DNA from: Mobula hypostoma
Taxonomy: Eukaryota
NCBI RefSeq assembly: GCF_963921235.1
Contig: NC_086097.1
Span: 129,830,001-129,894,000, forward strand
DNA length: 64,000 nt
Reading direction: 5' to 3'
Shown: positions 32,258 to 64,000 of the stretch, one piece after another
Position numbering within the stretch: the stretch's first letter is position 1
Layout of the letters: every line of letters starts with the position of its first letter
The notes under the pieces: generated by a model
What the model saw: the letters and a program-made list of their open reading frames with translations, nothing else
What the model was told of the DNA's origin: nothing
Databases searched by the model: none
Translations under genes and position numbers: made by a program

Positions 32258-32950
32258 TTCAGCCAATGATTGGTGTGTCAGGGCTGACCTGGACAGGAAA
32301 GGCAGTTTCCCGGAGCAAATAGCTTTCTCAACATTGCGTCCAGATATAATCGTATGGTCTGACACCAGTAGGGAAGTGGTTATTGGTGAACTCACAGTCC
32401 CCTGGGAAGACAACATCGATGAAGCCCATGAGCGCAAGTTAACCAAGTATGCAGAATTAAGATCAGAGTGCAGAGACAGAGGGTGGAAGGTCTCATGCTA
32501 TCCATTCGAAGTAGGCTGCCGTGGGTTTATTGCGTTCACTTTCCAGAAGTGGCTGCGGACCTTGGCTTCACTAGAAGAGAGATCAAGTCAACCAGCAGGG
32601 TTGTAGCTGAGGCAGCAGAGAAAGGATCAGCATGCGTGTAGACCAAGTACGTCCAGAGGGGCAGATAGTCAGACAGTGTATACATATCTTGCAAACCCTT
32701 CAGTAGTTGCATAGACACCTGAAGAGCAGACTATCTGTTGGATGGAAGTGACTGATAGAGGCAGATGCCAAGTTTTTAAGCTCACCAGTGGGAGGTGGTG
32801 CTTTAGCACTGCTGGCCCACCACCTCGAGGGAGTCTTGATCATAAGCGGGCCGAAACTCCTGAAGACAGGTGGTGGATCAACTGATGATCCCACTGGTGA
32901 TAGCACAGGACAGTTAACATCTCAGTCCACGTGTATTTTGTAACTCTGAT
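32258..32950 (+). mobile_element. Hero-clade (restriction-like endonuclease) non-LTR retrotransposon, 3' fragment
   Basis: LRPDIIVWS..VIGELTVPWEDNIDEAHERKLTKY..PFEVGCRGF, a PD-(D/E)xK RLE domain, followed by a 3'UTR. Confidence 0.9.
32829..32895 (+). ncRNA. Predicted non-circularly permuted hammerhead ribozyme, copy 1
   Basis: ggagTC-ttgatc / agcggg-cc-GAAA-ctcc / gatcaa-CTGATGA-t-cccact. Confidence 0.7.
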
Positions 32951-34714: not shown

Positions 34715-37700
34715 TCAGGACAGAGCAGCCAGTACAAAGTACCCCTGAGGCCATTCCCCATGATAATAAGTATACCGGCTTGGATACTGTTGTGGGGGAC
34801 GACCTACCAGTGTGGGGTGCGGGGGGGGGGGGGGAAAGGCAGCTGCAGTGACAAGGTCCCTGGCACTGAGTCTGTTGCTGTGGCTCAGAAAAGAAGACAG
34901 GTGAGGAGGACTGCAGTAGTGAAGGGAGGTTGAGACGAGATTCTGTGTTTGCAAAAGAGAGACCCAGATAGCATGCTGTTTCCCAGGTGCCAGGGCCAGG
35001 GATGTCATAGATCGGGTCCACGGCATTCTACAGGTGAGCAGCCTGAAGCCGTGGTACAGTGCCCATAAAAAGTATTCACCCCACTCCCCCCGGAAGTTTT
35101 CATGTTTTATTGTTTCATAGCATTGAATCACAGTGGATTTAATTTGGCTTTTAATTGACACTGATCAACAGAAAAAGACATCCGTGTCAAACTGAAAACA
35201 AATCTCTACAGAGTGGTCTAAATTAATTTTAAATATAAAACACAAAATAATTGATTGCATAAATATTCACCCCCTTTAATATGACACACCAATTCATCAC
35301 TGGTGCAGCCAACTGATTCTAGAAGTCACATAATTAGTTAAATGGAGATCACCATGTGCAGTCAAGGTGTTTCAATTGATTGCAGTAAAAATACACCTGT
35401 ACTGTATCTGGGAGTCCAACTGCTGGTGACTCAGTGTCCTGGCAAAAACTACACCATGAAGACAAAAGAACACTTCAAGCAACTCTGCAAAAAGTTTACT
35501 GACAAATACAAGTCAGGAGATGGACGTAAGAAAATTTCCAAGTCAGTGAATATCCCCTGGAATACAGTTAAGTCATCATCTAGAAATGGAAAGAATATGG
35601 CACAGTTGTAAATCTGCCTAGAGCAGGCTGTCCTCAAAAACTGAATGACTGCAAGAAGGGGACTAGTGAGGGAGACTACCAAGAGACCTATGACAACTCT
35701 GGAGGAGTTACAAGCTTCAGTGGCTGAGATGGGAGAGACTGTGCATACAACAACTGTTACTTGGGTGCTTCATCAGTCACAGCTTTATGGGAGCGTGGCA
35801 AAGAGAAAGCCATTGTTGAAAAAAACTCACATGAAATCTCAGCTACAGTTTGCCAGAAGGCATGTGGGAGACTCTGAAGTCAGCTGGAAAAAGGTCCTAT
35901 GGTCTGCGAAACCAAAATTGAGCTTTCTGGGCAATAGACTAAATGCTACATTTGGTGTAAGCCGAACACCGCACACCATCAAAAACTCTTTGTCTCTCCC
36001 GTGAAGCATGGTGATGACTACATCATGCTGTGGGGTTGCTTCATTGCAGCAGGGCCTGGAAGGTTTGTGATAGTAGAGGGTAAAATGAATGCTGCAAAAT
36101 ACAGGGAAATCCTGGGAGAAAACCTGATGCAGTCTGCAAGAGAACTGCGACTTGGGAGAACATTGGTTTTCCAGCAAGACAATGACCCCAAGCACAAAGC
36201 CAAAGCTACACAGGAATGGTTTAAAAACAACGAAGTTAATGTCCTGGAGTGGCCAAATCAGAGTCCAGTCCTCAATCCAATTGAGAATTTGTGGCAGGAC
36301 TTGAATAGGGCTGTTCACTCACAATCCCCATGCAATCTGACAGAGCTTAAACAGTTTTATAAAGAAGAATGGGGAAAAATTGCAGTGTCCGGATGTGCAA
36401 AGCTGATAGAGACCGATCCACATAGACTCAAGGCTGTAATTGGTGTCAAAGGTGGATCTACTAAATACTGACTTAAAAGGGGTGAATACTTATGCAATCA
36501 ATTATTTTGTGTTTTATATTAGTATTTAATTTAGATCATTTTGTAGAGATCTGTTTTCACTTTGGCACGAAATAGTCTTTTTCTGTTGATCAGTGTCAAA
36601 AAAAGCCAAATTAAATCCATTGTGATTCGGTATTGTGAAACATGGAAACTTCCAAGAGGTGTGAATACTTCTTATACGCACTGTACTTACTGGTACCAAT
36701 AACATAGGTAGGAGAGGCGAGGCGGTCCTGAGATTTTAGCGAACTTGGTAGAAATCTGAAAAGCAGGACCACCAGGGTAGTAATCTCCGAATTGCTGTCT
36801 GCACCACGCACCAGTGAAGGTAAGAATAGAAAGATCTGGCAGGAGTATGCATGGCTGAATAACTGGTGTAGTGGCAGGAGTTCAGATTTCTGGATCACTG
36901 GAATCTCTTCTAAGGAAGTTTAAACCTGTTAAAAAGGAATGGGTTACATCTAAACCAGAGGGGAGGGGCAATGTCCTTGCAGGCAGGTTTGCTAGAGCAG
37001 CTGGGGAGATTTAAACTAATTTGTCAGGGGGATGGGAACTGGAGTGATAGGGCTGGGGATGAGGCAGTTGGTATACAAACAGAGACAGTGAGTAGTGAGA
37101 CTGCTAGCAAGGACAGGCTGATGATAAGGCAAAATTGCAGTCAGTGGGATGAAGTGCAATATAAAAGGGGGATAAAAACAAGATTGAAGGTGTTATATTT
37201 GAATGCACACAGTATATGGAATAAGGTAAATAAACATAGCAGAGTTAGAGATTGGCAGTTATGACTTTGTGGGCATCACTGAGCCGTGGCTGAAAGAAGA
37301 TTAAAGCTGGGAGCTTAACATCCAAGGATACACATTGTATATAAAGGGCAGGCAGGTTGGCAGAGGGGATGAGGTGGCTCTGTTGGTAGAAAATGAAATA
37401 AAATCCTTAGAAAGAGGTGACACTTGTAGGTAGGCAAAGAAACTGCAAGGGGAAAAAGCCCCTGATGGGAATTATATACAGACCTCTGAACAGTAGCAAA
37501 GATGAGTGCTCCAAATTACAACAGGAAATAGAAAAGGCATCTCAAAAGGGCAATGTTACGATAGTCCTGGGGGATTTCAATGTACAGGTAGATTGGGAAA
37601 ATCAGGTTGGTGTTGGATCACATGAGGGGGTATTTGCAGAATTCTAATAAGAATGCTTTTTAGAGCAGCTCGTGGTTGAGCCCACTAGGAGATCAGCTAT

Positions 37701-51319: not shown

Positions 51320-53198
51320 CAGTGCAATACAAAAGTTTGGGCACCCCTGGTCAAAATTTCTGTTACTGTGAATAGCTAAGTGAGTAAAAGGTGACCTGAT
51401 TTCCAAAAGGCATAAAGTTAAAGATGACACATTTCTTTAATATTTTCAGCAAGATTACTTTTTTATTTCCATCTTTTACAGCTTCAAAATAACAAAAAAG
51501 GAAAAGGGCCCAAAGCAAAAGTTTGGGCACCCTGCATGGTCAGTACTTAGTAACACCCCCTTTGGCAAGTATCACAGCTTGTAAATGCTTTTTGTAGCCA
51601 GCTAAGAGTCTTTCAATTCTTGCTTGGGGGATTTTCACCCATTCTTCCTTGCAAAAGGCTTCTAGTTCCGTGAGATTCTTGGGCCGTCTTGCATGCACTG
51701 CTCTTTTGAGGTTTATCCGCAGATTCTCGATGATGTCCAGGTCGGGGGACTGTAAGGGCCATGGCGAAACCTTCAGTTTGCGCCTCTTGAGGTAGTCCAT
51801 TGTGGATTTTGAGGTGTGTTTAGGATCATTATCCTGTTGTAGAAGCCTCCCTCTTTTCATCTTCAGCTTTTTTACAGACGGTGTAACGTTTGCTTCCAGA
51901 ATTTGCTGGTATTTAATTGAATTCATTCTTCCCTCTTCCAGTGAAATGTTCCCCATGCCACTGGCTGCAACATAAGCCCAAAGCATGATTGATCCACCCC
52001 CATGCTTAACAGTTGGAGAGGGGTTCTTTTCATGAAATTCTGCACCCTTTTTTCTCCAAACATACCTTTGCTCATTGCAGCCAAAAAGTTCTATTTTAAC
52101 TTCATCAGTCTACAGGACTTGTTTCCAAAATGCACCCGGCTTGTTTAGATGTTCCTTTGTAAACTTCTGAAGCTGAATTTTGTGGTGAGGATGCAGTAAA
52201 AGATTTCTTCTTATGACTCTTCCATGATGGTCATATTTGCGCAGGTGTTACTGTATAGTAGAACAGTGCACCACCACTCCAAAAGATGAAGATCTTTTGC
52301 AGTCTACAAAAGATAGGATGGCATATTTAGTTGCTCTGATGATAAAGATATTGGTTCCTTGGGGAAAGTAATAAATAAATATACTAAATTTATTTTGAAT
52401 CCCGTGGAGCATGTGGAAACCTTCCAATATCCAGGCAGCTCTTCTTCCTTTTTCTTTTTCTTTCAGCTAGGGGTATATATCGGGGGGGGGGGGGGGGAGG
52501 GTAGTCATTATCTTTCTATGTAATCACTTCAAAAACTCAATAAAAATTATATTAAAAAAAGATCTTTTGCAGTCAAACAGGGGTTTTGATTTGCCTTTCT
52601 AGCAATCCTACCAGCAGTTCTCTCCGAAAATTTTCTTGGTCTTCCAGACCTCAACTTGACCTCCACTGTTCCTGTTAACTGCCATTTCTTAATTACATTA
52701 TGAACTGAGGAAACGGCTACCTGAACATGCTTTGCTATCTTCTTATAGCCTTCTCCTGCTTTGTGGGCATCATTTATTTTAATTTTCAGAGTGCTAGTCA
52801 GTTACTTAGAGGAGCCCATGGCTGCTGATTGTTGGGACAAGGTTTGAGGAGTCAGGGTATTTATAAAGCTTTGAAATTTGCATCACCTGGCCTTTCCTAA
52901 CAATGACTGTGAACAAGCAATAGCCCAAATAAGCTAATTAAGGTCTGAGACCTTGGTAAAAGTTATCTGAGAGCTCAAATCTCTTGGGGTGCCCAAACTT
53001 TGCATGGTGCTCCTTTCCTTTTTTTCACTCTAAAATTGTACAAAACAAAAATAAAACACTAATCTTGCTTAAAATGTTGAAAAGAATGTTTCATCTTTAA
53101 CTTTATGACTTTTGGAGACCAGTTCATCTTCTACTCACTTAACTATTCACAGTAACAGAAATTTTGACCAGGGGTGCCCAAACCTTTGCATGCCACTG
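51320..53198 (-). mobile_element. Tc1 transposon (IR/DR type) carrying an L1 insertion
   Basis: TA-flanked TIRs with repeated aagtttgggcaccc; LQQDNDPKH..SPDLDIIENL..GGVTKY. Confidence 0.95.
52305..52560 (+). mobile_element. L1-type 3' fragment inside Tc1
   Basis: G-run, aataaa and A-tail; 16-bp TSD aagatcttttgcagtc at 52289-52304 and 52559-52574. Confidence 0.75.
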
Positions 53199-53695: not shown

Positions 53696-54399
53696 GAATC
53701 CAATGGATCCAATTTCCTGGTTACAGATTGCACTGAGTGATTGTCTCCGTATCACAGCACGGCAATTCTGTGTACAATCTCTGGTGTGAACACACATCAC
53801 TTCCATCACTCCTCAAGTTACACTCTAATGTTTCGATGGAGAAAAACCAGCCGTGAAAGTAAAAGTAATATTCTAAAGCATTAGGTTAGATAGTTCATTA
53901 AGGCTAAAAAAATGGGTCATGCAAGAGTAAGTCTCTGTTCAGCCTGGCAATATAATGAGTTACATAATACTGATGAATTAGTATATTTAAAAACACATTT
54001 CCCCTTTACTGCTGGAATCAATTTTACTTATTATGTTTACATTAATGTACCTCAAGAGATTAGGATCTGATGGAATATTATATTTGTATAGTAGAGATGT
54101 TAAATAATTCGGTCTATTTGATGTACAGCAAATGAATGCCGTTAAATTCTTTTAAACTAAAACAGCTTATTAGACACATTTTTAATAGCTGTACAAATCA
54201 ATATAAATATTTAACAGAATCATAATGAAATTACATAACTTTAAATTTCACATTAGTACCCATGGACATTCAGCCAAAAAATTTATAATATCTTTAACAA
54301 TGAAGGGTTTATACTCAAAGGAGAAATTCAAATAATCAACTTGGCAATACTGATGAAAATTGAAATTGCTATTTTTTTTAAAGTAGCCCTTTAATGGTC

Positions 54400-54490
54400 C
54401 AGTTTATCTCAAGCCCAACTGGTCCTGTTTACAGCAAATTTAGCAACAAAATTTGCTGTAAACAGGACCAGTTGGGCTTGAGATAAACTG
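54400..54490. repeat. Perfect inverted repeat, 42-bp arms with a 7-nt spacer
   Basis: 54400-54441 is the exact reverse complement of 54449-54490; spacer agcaaca. Confidence 0.97.
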
Positions 54491-55117
54491 AGAAGCACAT
54501 AGAACAGATCAACGCAGGAACAGGTCTTTCAGTGCACAATGCCCGCACCGAAACAAGTTAAACTAATTCTCCTCTAGCTATACATGACTTTTATCCCTCA
54601 ACTCCTTGCATATTTATTTCACAATCCAACATCCTCTTAAATACTATTACTGCGCCACTTATCACTATTAGACATAACAACCCATTTCAGGCATCATCCA
54701 CTTTATGTGTTTAAAAAAATGCCCCACATATCTCCTTTAAACTTCCCCTCTCTCATCTTAAACGCATGTCTTCTAATACTTGACATTCCTATTCTGGAAA
54801 AAGATTCTGCCTCTGCTGTCTATGGCTCTCATAATCTTACAAGACTTCTATCACGTCTCCCCTCAGCCCCAGAGAAAATAACCTAAGTTTGTCTACCTCT
54901 CCAGACAGCACATACAATACCTTCTAATCTAGGCAGCATCCTGGTGAACTGCACCATTCCCAAAGCTCTCATATCCTGGGAGTCAAATCAGCCACCAAGC
55001 TGGATAGGACCTTTACAGTGAGGTCTATGCACAATTAAATAAAGACTGGTAGTTTAATGGAATATTGTGTGAAGTGCTGACCCTTCAAATGAGATAAAAT
55101 GATTGACTGTAATATAT

Positions 55118-55220
55118 AGGGAGTCTTGATCATAAGTGGGCCGAAACTCCTGAAGACAGGTGGCAGATCAACTGATGATCCCACTGGTGATAGCACATCT
55201 TAGTCCATGTGTATTTTGAA
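55118..55220 (+). mobile_element. Very short Hero 3'UTR fragment containing permuted hammerhead copy 2
   Basis: Near-identical to 32828-32940; stem II agtggg/cccact is fully paired. Confidence 0.85.
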
Positions 55221-55284: not shown

Positions 55285-56532
55285 CTATGCAAAAGTCCTT
55301 TTTCAAATAAATAACTTTTCAAATAAAATATTCATTACTTTGTAGGTATATAGCCCAGTGCATATATAAGAAACAGGTGCTAATGATCAAAGGCATAATG
55401 AGTTGAATGACCTGAACTGATTAACCAAAACAGAAATGCGCGTAGAAGCAATCAACCTGGGTGAAGGACAACCAAACTGAAAGGTGAGGGTGTGGCAGAT
55501 GTGACTGTTAATCTTCAAATTGTCAATTCTTACACCATGGCAAGAGTGTGCATAGTAACAAGACACAAGGTGGTCACCCTGCATTAGCAGGGTCTTCTCC
55601 AAGCAGAAATGTTGTGGCTGGCAGGAATTTCAAGATATGCTATCCAAGCTCTTCTGAAGAAGCACAATGAAATGGTCAAGGTTGAGGACCAGAAACGCAG
55701 TGGTTGGCCATGGAAACTGAGTACAGCAGATGAGAGATACATCAAACTGACATACTTTCTGAATCAGAACTCCAGCACTGCTATCAGCTCTGAAAGCAAA
55801 GAAACCACTGGAACCCAAGTACACCCCTTTATGGTCCAGAGAAGTACAGTTAGAAGGGGTCTTCATGGAAGAGTTGCCACCAAAAAGCCATTCCTGTCAA
55901 GTAGAAACAAAGCCAAGAGACTCACCTATGCACTAAGACAGAAGACTGGTGTGCTGAACAAAGGGAGCAAATGCTTTGGACTGACGAGTCAAAATTTGAA
56001 ATATTCGGCTCAAACAGGCTGCAGTTTGTCTGTAGAAAAGCTGGAGAGTGCTACACAGATGAGTATCTTCAGCCAAGAGTGAAGCATGGTGGAGGTTCCC
56101 TGCAGGTTTGGGGCTACTTTCTGCAAATGGAGTTGGTGATTTGGTCAGAATTAATGGAATCCTCAAAGCTGAGAAGCAGGTTCTCATACATAATGCAATA
56201 CCATCAGGGAGGGGTCTGATTGGTCCCAACTTCATTCTGCAGCAGGACAATGACCCCAAACACATGGCCAAGGTCATAAAGATCTACCTTCAGCGAAAAG
56301 AAGAACAAGGAGCTTTGCAACAGATGGTATGACCTCCAAAGCCTTGATCTCCACATCATCAAAGTTTTAAAACCAAAGAGTAGTCGCACCAAATATTGAT
56401 TTGATTTAGTGTTTTACTACTTACTGTTCTCTATGGTATTTTTTTGATACTTAGAAACTTTTTATTAGTTTTGGAAGTATCTTCACTTTACAGGATTTTT
56501 TTACATGTGCCTAATATATTTGCACAGTACTG
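55280..56532 (+). mobile_element. Decayed Tc1 transposon
   Basis: Termini cagtactatgcaaaa / tttgcacagtactg-TA; LWTDESKFEIFG..KHGGGS..ILQQDNDPKH. Confidence 0.9.
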
Positions 56533-62785: not shown

Positions 62786-62809
62786 TTTTTTTTAAAACAG
62801 AAGCTATAG

Positions 62810-63050
62810 AATGCAATAGCAGGGAGGGCAGTAATTAGCTGGCACTGTGTTTGATACAAACTCCACTGACCAGCATCCTTCAACAGGTAGGAGCAGATGG
62901 GCAGTGATTTGGCCACCACTGCCGGCCCACCAACTGGAGAGTGTCATGGTTAAGGGTCGAAAACACTCTGTGAAGGTTGGGAGCCACCCGATGACATTTG
63001 CTCCTGGCTGAAGGCTACAGTTACTTTATAAGGTATCTGGAGAATGCACC
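62810..63050 (+). mobile_element. Hero-type 3'UTR-like segment of a second family, containing permuted hammerhead copy 3 (62938-62998)
   Basis: cactgccggcccaccaactggagagtgtc is homologous to cactgctggcccaccacctcgagggagtc in copy 1. Confidence 0.7.
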
Positions 63051-64000
63051 CTAACAGGTGTATGTAACAAGTAATCTCTGTTTTGTACCAGTGGCTTCCA
63101 GGAAAGACTGGATTGCAACCGAGGAAGGTCAGTGACGCTGGAGAGACAGCTGACCTCCAGGAAAGACTGACACGGGCTCACAAGGCTAGCAACCTTGTGG
63201 GCAGCACTCGCAAGAGGGAACCACTCAAGCTACGATTGAACACAAAGAGCAATACCCTCAGAGTCTCCTGAGAGGGAGGGGAGAGGATGAGAGACGCAAC
63301 GGGACGATATACCGGCAATGGCCAGGACAGGAAACACAACTACAAGGAAGCTAAAGCAAACAACACTGACTGGAGAGGAATTCACAGTAAGGTGTCATTG
63401 CAGGAAAGTCTGCAAAAACATCAGAGGGCTCAAAAGATATACCAGAGCAGGTCTAGATGTGGATCAATGGTGACCCAAGTGCAGCACATGGACTTGGTGT
63501 CCGGTGAGACGAAGGAGAATTCCAGCCAGGAAGCATCCCACAGAGCTGAAGATCTCTCCGCACTCGAGTAGCCTCAGCACCGAACAACAGACCAAGTGAG
63601 TTCCCCTTTGGCTACCCCAATCCATTCATCAAGGAAAGGCAGGATCAAATGGCCTAGATCGTCAGACAACGTCACCTGGATGCAACCAAATAGGAGGGAA
63701 AGGGAGGTTCGTCGCTTGAGAGGTGAATTACAGACGCTCAACAAGAGGTTTAAAACCAGCTCACTGACCAAAAGAGAAGGTTTCAAGGACGTAACCAGTA
63801 TGCTGCGGGAAAAGCTGTGCAAACTCTGGAGGGCGGAACATCTACGACAGCAAAGAAGGAAGAAAGAGAAAAGGCGAGCGCAGTTTGTGAGAGATCCATT
63901 CAGTTTCACCAGGACTCTTCTCGGCCAACAAAAATCTGTTATACTATCCAGTTCGAAGCCAGAGGGAGAGGAGTTCCTGTGGGAGGCACACAGTGACCCA
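63050..64000 (+). mobile_element. Hero-clade retrotransposon 5' region (N-terminal zinc finger), running off the window
   Basis: CHCRKVCKNIRGLK/IYQSRSRC; QEASHRAEDL; RIKWP; PNRRERE..LREKL..RAE..FVRDPFSFTRTLLG..HSDP. Confidence 0.85.

Follow-up and report, generated by a model that had tools for sequence, protein, structure and literature searches.

Does a reordered set of hammerhead core words, found three times in a 64-kb window (the whole stretch of DNA analysed here), mark a functional RNA fold, and which strands would build it? The words occur in the order cleavage site, GAAA, CUGANGA (S-G-C) at 32828-32893 (copy 1), 55118-55183 (copy 2) and 62938-62998 (copy 3). The original prediction read them as a permuted hammerhead and singled out copy 3, the divergent one, as showing conservation of structure and not of sequence. 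The analysis confirms the motif and finds it to extend beyond what was predicted: an RNA fold of about 120 nt is almost certainly conserved in the 3′ UTR of Hero-like, R2-type elements. Judged from its sequence, the fold unites a complete hammerhead core with rewired strands and probably cleaves itself, which would cut read-through tandem transcripts into unit-length RNAs.

Rfam gave no hammerhead match in the window, nor in eight relative loci, and Pfam gave no match on three protein fragments of the window. A relaxed descriptor, written after the copies had been seen and loosened enough to catch copy 3, found exactly these three sites, compared with a mean of 0.12 (maximum 3) in 100 local shuffles, both strands being scanned. 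Copies 1 and 2 are as follows.

32782..32900, + strand: copy 1, complete motif in a 3′ UTR, with intact core and all six helices (folding z = -5.2)
55118..55218, + strand: copy 2, short 5′-truncated insertion that starts 8 nt before the predicted cut and lacks the 5′ strand of helix X, hairpin Y and the 5′ strand of stem II

Because the 5′ strand of stem II is missing from copy 2, this copy has no stem II in cis. The window as a whole is repeat-rich, animal-type DNA. It contains a near-perfect long inverted repeat at 54397-54493, which matched several microRNA models below their gathering thresholds and is probably a small inverted-repeat transposon. ORFs at 35938-36471, 51540-52109 and 55588-56082 resemble Tc1-type transposase fragments by eye, and copy 2 lies just upstream of the last of these.

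About 270 nt upstream of copy 1, a C-terminal restriction-like endonuclease fragment (32268-32564) is encoded; 84 of 128 candidates are relatives of this fragment, and those that carry a name are from brittle star, lancelet, sea urchin, sturgeon and teleosts. The carrier element has a single ORF with a reverse transcriptase, a zinc knuckle and the C-terminal endonuclease. Pfam recognized RVT_1 and zf-RVT in the relatives L052 and L029 (zf-RVT in L029 below the cut-off), the protein alignment shows the PD...E motif of the endonuclease, and the best matches among solved structures are R2 proteins. No GIY-YIG match, a feature of Penelope-like elements, was returned by Pfam for L052 or L029. We call the carrier Hero-like, a provisional label that the original prediction also used.

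To collect relatives of the motif, we used an alignment of 30 endonuclease-region proteins as the query. This yielded 79 metagenome loci (from the best 80 of 350 confirmed) and 7 further loci from prokaryote assemblies, 86 in all. Viral contigs yielded no relatives. Three of the loci, L080, L081 and L082, are retrotransposon fragments on short contigs of bacterial assemblies, L081 with a full motif; they are probably eukaryotic contamination. A strict S-G-C scan of the 86 loci gave 54 matches, every one of them sense; most lie 125-315 nt downstream of the endonuclease match. In 20 shuffles the same scan gave 0-1. A relaxed scan of the 3′ tails, from which the weak bacterial matches L084-L086 were left out, detected the motif in 47 of 83 loci (59 of the 83 have tails of at least 330 nt) and gave 43 distinct motifs; these loci are related by descent, so their counts are not independent. 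Looser searches recovered the motif in about a dozen of the loci missed by the relaxed scan. They found none in eight long-tailed loci (L017, L020, L025, L041, L050, L061, L063 and L083).

In the standard numbering scheme, the hammerhead core comprises C3 U4 G5 A6 N7 G8 A9 and G12 A13 A14, and the family conforms to it; copy 3 deviates. N7 varies among the 43 motifs and the other core bases hardly vary, a conservation that is partly built into the relaxed scan because core positions were scored. Two positions were left unconstrained. Position 16.1 is U in all 43 motifs, and position 17 is A in 16, C in 14, U in 13 and G in none. The NUH rule for a hammerhead cleavage site is thus obeyed, with U16.1 paired to A15.1 and position 17 never G. 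Stems I and III flank the predicted site and covary, as in hammerheads. A scan with helices only and no core letters gave 33 distinct sense matches, 31 of them with the core, and 5 antisense matches, none of which has it. In L038/L046 and in L049, the C3-G8 pair is replaced by U3-A8 with the full architecture kept, although these represent two distinct elements only; U3-G8 is found in L003 and L009.

The fold departs from the original prediction at stem II, which had been drawn between the bases after CUGAUGA and the strand before GAAA. A downstream stem of this kind reaches at least four pairs in only 4 of the 43 motifs; all 16 registers tried were rejected, none exceeding 45% Watson–Crick pairs. 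An upstream strand, located about 19-20 nt 5′ of U16.1 and some 65 nt 5′ of the CUGANGA core, forms at least five pairs with the strand before GAAA in 35 of 43 motifs; 1000 row swaps gave 6.5 on average and 15 at most. Stem II has more than 10 different sequences across the protein tree. In each of the 38 motifs with the upstream stem, it contains the pair G10.1-Y11.1 (G-C in 33, G-U in 5). Five of the 43 motifs have no upstream stem II starting at C11.1; two of these, L034 and L057, look decayed. In another of the five, L048 (around 1620-1760), G10.1 appears to be adjacent to A9 and the upstream strand pairs only from position 11.2, so that the junction appears to have moved by one base pair. 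The pattern of G10.1 beside A9 is less clear in L006 and L008, both of which are without the K-turn described below.

Two further helices occupy the space between A9 and G10.1. Hairpin Y ends directly before G10.1 in 37 of the 38 motifs. Helix X, whose 5′ strand precedes Y, has at least six pairs in 29 of the 38, with no gap to Y in 28 of these and with its 3′ strand starting at the base next after A9 in all 29. On the other side of the core, stem III consists of 4-5 pairs beyond A15.1-U16.1. It is followed in 33 of 43 motifs by a 3-nt bulge, a tandem G-A and a helix of about six pairs, an arrangement expected in about 0.02 by chance; copies 1 and 3 fit it. The outer helix, which we call the ‘I’ helix after the naming used for type-SGC hammerheads, has 4-6 of 6 pairs in these 33 motifs (5-6 in 32) and covaries. 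Kink-turns have a 3-nt bulge followed by tandem G-A/A-G pairs between two helices. The loop from stem III to the ‘I’ helix matches this consensus and is a predicted kink-turn.

Covariation was evaluated on two sequence-only MAFFT alignments, one of 12 rows and one of 14, selected because their spacing agrees, L052:2674-2800 having been added to the 14-row set and the other rows of 37 left out. Pairs were counted on these subsets because the 37-row alignment misregisters stem II by one column between subfamilies. There, pairing holds in 96% of cells, and for 23 of 33 pairs both partners vary; none of 500 shuffles reached the observed level, and slid controls paired at 34-54%. Unconstrained folding recovered X, Y, the ‘I’ helix and stem III in copy 3 (z = -3.1), with z = -5.2 for copy 1 and only -1.7 for L066. 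Sequence and covariation show a strand order of X5′-Y-II5′-‘I’ helix-GA-III5′-UH-I5′-linker-II3′-GAAA-III3′-bulge-GA-‘I’ helix-I3′-CUGANGA-X3′, by which the two ends of the RNA enter between A9 and G10.1. Since the true stem II uses an upstream strand, this topology differs from the one drawn originally.

Mapped onto copy 3 and its surroundings, the fold and its carrier take the following form.

62889..63072, + strand: 3′ end of a Hero-like non-LTR retrotransposon, 5′-truncated (last codons, stop, 3′ UTR), which holds copy 3; from depth edges and alignment to the 3′ ends of L066 and L052
62889..62899, + strand: helix X, 5′ strand; 11 pairs with 62995-63005, recovered by unconstrained folding, covaries
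62900..62923, + strand: hairpin Y, 7-bp stem, 6-nt palindrome in the loop, stop codon of the ORF in the 5′ arm; from folding and pairing
62924..62928, + strand: stem II, 5′ strand, G10.1 at 62924; 5 pairs with 62954-62958, covariation in relatives
62930..62938, + strand: equivalent of the ‘I’ helix (type-SGC naming), 5′ strand, then G-A of the K-turn-like loop; 6 pairs with 62975-62980, geometry as in 33 of 43 relatives
62939..62945, + strand: stem III, 5′ strand, U16.1 at 62944 and C17 at 62945; 6 pairs with 62963-62968
62946..62951, + strand: stem I, 5′ strand; 62946 is A in copy 3 and G in the family majority
62954..62963, + strand: stem II, 3′ strand (C11.1 at 62958) and G12-A15.1, with one surplus A in copy 3
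62964..62980, + strand: stem III, 3′ strand, 3-nt bulge, G-A of the K-turn-like loop and ‘I’ helix, 3′ strand
62982..62994, + strand: stem I, 3′ strand, and core positions 3-9; CCGAUGA in copy 3, CUGAUGA in the family majority
62995..63005, + strand: helix X, 3′ strand, which begins at the base next after A9 and had been taken for part of stem II
63073..64000, + strand: linker, then the conserved 5′ UTR (beginning near 63087) and a broken N-terminal portion of a second Hero-like element, running off the window end

The segments at 62938-62998 and their order, common to copies 1 and 2, are as originally described. Recomputing the pairing also bore out a stem I of five pairs plus an A-C mismatch, and the core letters CCGAUGA were read correctly. 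The motif itself spans 62889-63005. The partner strand of stem II (62924-62928) therefore lay outside the predicted range, and the stem II proposed with the bases after the core does not form. Stem III pairs as proposed except for its seventh pair (62938-62969), which is possible on paper but falls on positions of the K-turn-like loop in relatives. The supposed GAAA reads GAAAA at 62959-62963, one A more. As for conservation of structure rather than sequence in a permuted hammerhead-like fold, the covariation of relatives supports it. Covariation is also present within the window; it is weak as evidence because it compares two homologous subfamilies whose flanks also align, and the strong signal comes from loci outside.

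To see how copy 3 relates to its family, we aligned contigs of four public runs to window positions 62800-63250, taking depth as summed contig depth, which is not copy number. A high-depth unit extends from 62889 to about 63072, at 5-30 times the depth of the sequence behind it. Loose contig ends before 62889 run on into the end of the ORF; after 63071-63074 they consist of unrelated flanking sequence. Depth unit and loose-end pattern together lead us to read copy 3 as the 3′ end of a 5′-truncated element. Majority letters were taken from three DNA-type runs, with contigs of three organisms. At 62946 the majority is G (98, 96 and 90% of depth), where copy 3 has A. The majority also differs from copy 3 at 62983 (A, >99% in the three runs), 62989 (T, >99%) and 62998 (C, 99%). 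One A is omitted at 62960 in 29, 24 and 58% of depth, and an additional 26-31 contigs per run break at 62962 and then run straight into the stem III strand. The family majority has CUGAUGA and six Watson–Crick stem I pairs, and most probably GAAA without the surplus A.

The defects of copy 3, namely the CCGAUGA core, the surplus A and the A-C mismatch, are thus repaired in the majority, which identifies copy 3 as a decayed member of an intact family, as had been suspected; copy 3 itself is likely inactive. A consensus had been expected to restore CUGAUGA and Watson–Crick pairing in stems I and II. It does so for the core and for a 6-bp stem I, and it does not restore the downstream stem II, on which the prediction fails by its own criterion. 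Contigs of the run X16 carry the family letters; that X16 is an RNA run is a guess, and we do not count it as evidence of expression. At the predicted cut the summed contig depth does not step, and no accumulation of ends was listed, a weak test since it uses contigs, and one that points to templates continuous across the site for most inserted copies.

What follows copy 3 is a second element. A reading frame about 300 nt downstream matches the N-termini of proteins with reverse transcriptase and restriction-like endonuclease, L066 is 79% identical to the window over 62919-63684, across the junction, and one bridging contig each in X5 and X9 spans the tandem junction. The truncated element whose 3′ end is copy 3 lies head-to-tail before the 5′ UTR of another. 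Tandem junctions are also present in L066 and L052. With 5′ UTR starts located by profile (a regular expression had matched falsely inside ORFs), the core lies upstream in 15 of 19 5′ UTR matches with at least 200 nt upstream, and U3-A8 variants add two; the resulting 17 of 19 is inflated because the loci were chosen by their endonuclease domain. In the reverse direction, a 5′ UTR follows the motif in only 9 of 31 motifs with at least 250 nt downstream. L024, L029 and L066 are end-redundant contigs and may be assembly loops. In L052:1-6520, two elements that are 70% identical follow one another head-to-tail, and each carries a separate version of the motif. One rolling circle could not produce such a tandem; unless the contig is a chimera, template jumping or self-targeting must occur as well.

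The 5′ UTR has conserved features of its own. Short hairpins with similar purine-rich 6-nt loops occur at 63074-63200 and in L066:150-275, L052:2856-2980, L051, L030 and L078; they are possibly protein-binding or translation-start signals. A small hairpin spans the tandem junction. In the subfamily that includes copy 3 (stop at 62904-62906), L052, L066 and L078, the last codons and the stop overlap helix X and hairpin Y, where a ribosome could unfold the motif.

How might such a fold work? Helices X and Y would stack on one another and bring A9 and G10.1 together at a nick, where they stay adjacent, and the K-turn would lead the chain back toward stems I and II after stem III. Cleavage is predicted 3′ of UH, between 62945 and 62946 in copy 3 and between 32835 and 32836 in copy 1. 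We would expect intact family members to cleave with high probability. That the role is the processing of tandem transcripts is a reasonable but less secure proposal: the RNA of a downstream element would get its 5′ end from the motif of the copy upstream. The predicted cut lies about 125 nt inside the 3′ end of the element, and genomic copies nonetheless cross it, so their templates must be uncut, re-ligated or held together. The fold offers the latter two, since the fragments share about 28 bp. The ends of a released monomer would re-pair through these (X, II, ‘I’ and III) and either stay joined or re-ligate into a circle, and the reverse transcriptase would then copy across the cut site. 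We tentatively extend this to a picture in which an active hammerhead, of a topology not among the six published permutations, is carried by a whole clade of R2-like LINEs and may cut and re-ligate tandem transcripts into circular templates for Penelope- or retrozyme-like rolling with internal priming. If true, this would mean an opening of A9/G10.1 by a two-helix insert, closure by a K-turn, and the first large genomic family of non-circularly permuted ribozymes.

Two points weigh on cleavage by this fold. In the available text of PMC10085705, at most 1-2 nt separate CUGANGA from the stems, so activity with two helices at this place would be unprecedented. Sterically, there may also be little room where both strands connect stem III with the ‘I’ helix; the same text raises a steric concern for short linkers. 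For a Penelope element, the part of PMC11167929 available to us reports hammerhead cleavage as dispensable for insertion in vitro, with no RNA reads ending at the cut.

The continuity of genomic copies across the cut also suits an account with a different RNA fate, which we consider possible though not probable: the active ribozyme would only make the 5′ end of the downstream element's RNA, in the style of the HDV-like ribozymes of R2 (a precedent described in the accessible part of PMC6765202), its own 3′ copy staying uncut and no circle forming. Protein binding, or translation through the stop, would block folding of that 3′ copy. The stop does lie inside X/Y, 15-18 nt before G10.1, in L052, L066 and L078, and the motif usually precedes 5′ UTRs. 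In 25 of 38 motifs, however, the stop is 40-670 nt before G10.1, so ribosome control is not general. Fold and chemistry are the same as in our preferred reading, and the fate of the RNA alone separates the two. The same continuous copies, together with a fold about 70-130 nt from the 3′ end, might instead reflect a non-catalytic scaffold in the 3′ UTR, derived from a hammerhead that no longer cuts and bound by the element's protein during target-primed reverse transcription; R2-type proteins bind their RNA near the 3′ end. We regard this as improbable, since selection for cleavage chemistry is expected to leave just such traces, namely a free choice of A, C or U at position 17 with G excluded, an invariant core and the U3-A8 swap, and there is no evident reason for a binding site to obey the position-17 rule.

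That cleavage might require a second molecule is suggested by hairpin Y, in whose apical part a 6-nt palindrome occurs in 23 of 38 motifs, compared with 7.0 expected by shuffling. There are three main palindromes, which differ between lineages (that of copy 3 is at 62908-62916), so kissing-loop dimerization is possible, and cleavage only as a dimer or in trans, through a strand swap between RNAs or tandem copies, would ease the steric question. Penelope hammerheads have been proposed to act as dimers (PMC4209133, from the text available). We find obligate dimers doubtful: 15 of the 38 motifs have no palindrome, copy 1 included, the 14 TGATCA cases come largely from related lineages, and all helices can be drawn within a single molecule. 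The standard type-SGC hammerhead, with stem II built from the bases right after CUGAUGA as originally predicted, has the S-G-C order in its favour, a few G-U pairs can be drawn between its G-rich and C/U-rich strands, and L048 appears to pair the base after A9 with C11.1. It is nevertheless very improbable, because that base is C or U in 36 of 43 motifs and faces C, the bases after A9 form helix X instead, and covariation contradicts a downstream stem II. The rewired fold, probably self-cleaving, is our preferred reading.

The preferred fold has its closest counterpart in the type-SGC hammerheads, HRIMA-1 among them, described and assayed by Eckert et al. in 2023 (PMC10085705; the comparison covers the available part of that paper). 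Both have the cyclic block order C, S, G, stems I, II and III crossed in two pseudoknots, a short linker from stem I to stem II, and an extra ‘I’ helix between the stem II extension and the strand that precedes stem I. With HRIMA-1 the fold also shares an irregularity after A9, which there is a single extra U. The type-SGC hammerheads, which came from metatranscriptomes, keep the A9-G10.1 linkage intact; here block C is interrupted, with two helices between A9 and G10.1 and the stem II strand placed first, and the two strands of stem III both continue into the ‘I’ helix by way of the K-turn-like loop. In the same text, the CUGANGA block is assumed to be uninterruptible, no known hammerhead alignment having more than 1-2 nt between it and the stems, and non-circular permutations are described as absent from known organisms' genomes save for one bacterial candidate of another type. 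As its sequences indicate, the present family splits a core block and resides in genomic retrotransposons, whereas non-circular permutations were known only from virus-like metatranscriptome RNAs, the three core blocks being assumed to be unsplittable. The published type-SGC search patterns demand CUGAUGAG or CUGAUGAUG directly before stem II (PMC10085705, same part), and the present form would be missed by them. Because a block is split, and because proteins related to those of the carrier family occur in fishes, lancelets and echinoderms, a very large number of genomic ribozymes have probably escaped pattern searches. We found no earlier report of the motif in Rfam or in the open literature, which here excludes subscription journals and Repbase Reports.

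Among retroelements, the available portions of PMC4209133 and PMC11167929 describe a similar arrangement in the pseudo-LTRs of Penelope-like elements: a terminal hammerhead in an autonomous retroelement with partial tandems. The U3-A8 core variant is common to both families (PMC4209133). The Penelope hammerheads are, in those portions, ordinary type I or minimal ones accompanied by a GIY-YIG endonuclease, unlike the reverse transcriptase, zinc knuckle and restriction-like endonuclease of the present carrier. The HDV-like ribozymes at the 5′ ends of R2 and L1Tc (PMC6765202, in part) resemble it in that either would free a non-LTR RNA from a longer transcript. They belong to another class, and it takes tandem copies to bring the present motif, which is part of the 3′ UTR, to a 5′ position. 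The carrier shares with the HERO clade, as far as PMC4640811 was available, a single ORF with reverse transcriptase and C-terminal endonuclease and dispersed insertions in non-conserved flanks; no description of a ribozyme or a tandem habit for HERO was found in the open literature, including the available parts of PMC4640811 and PMC7650587. The family bears on how R2-like elements without an rDNA host promoter define the ends of their RNA, and on why they lie head-to-tail. It also lets one ask whether a helical junction can replace the A9-G10.1 linkage, and whether a K-turn solves the geometry between stem III and the ‘I’ helix that the accessible text of PMC10085705 left open for the type-SGC hammerheads.
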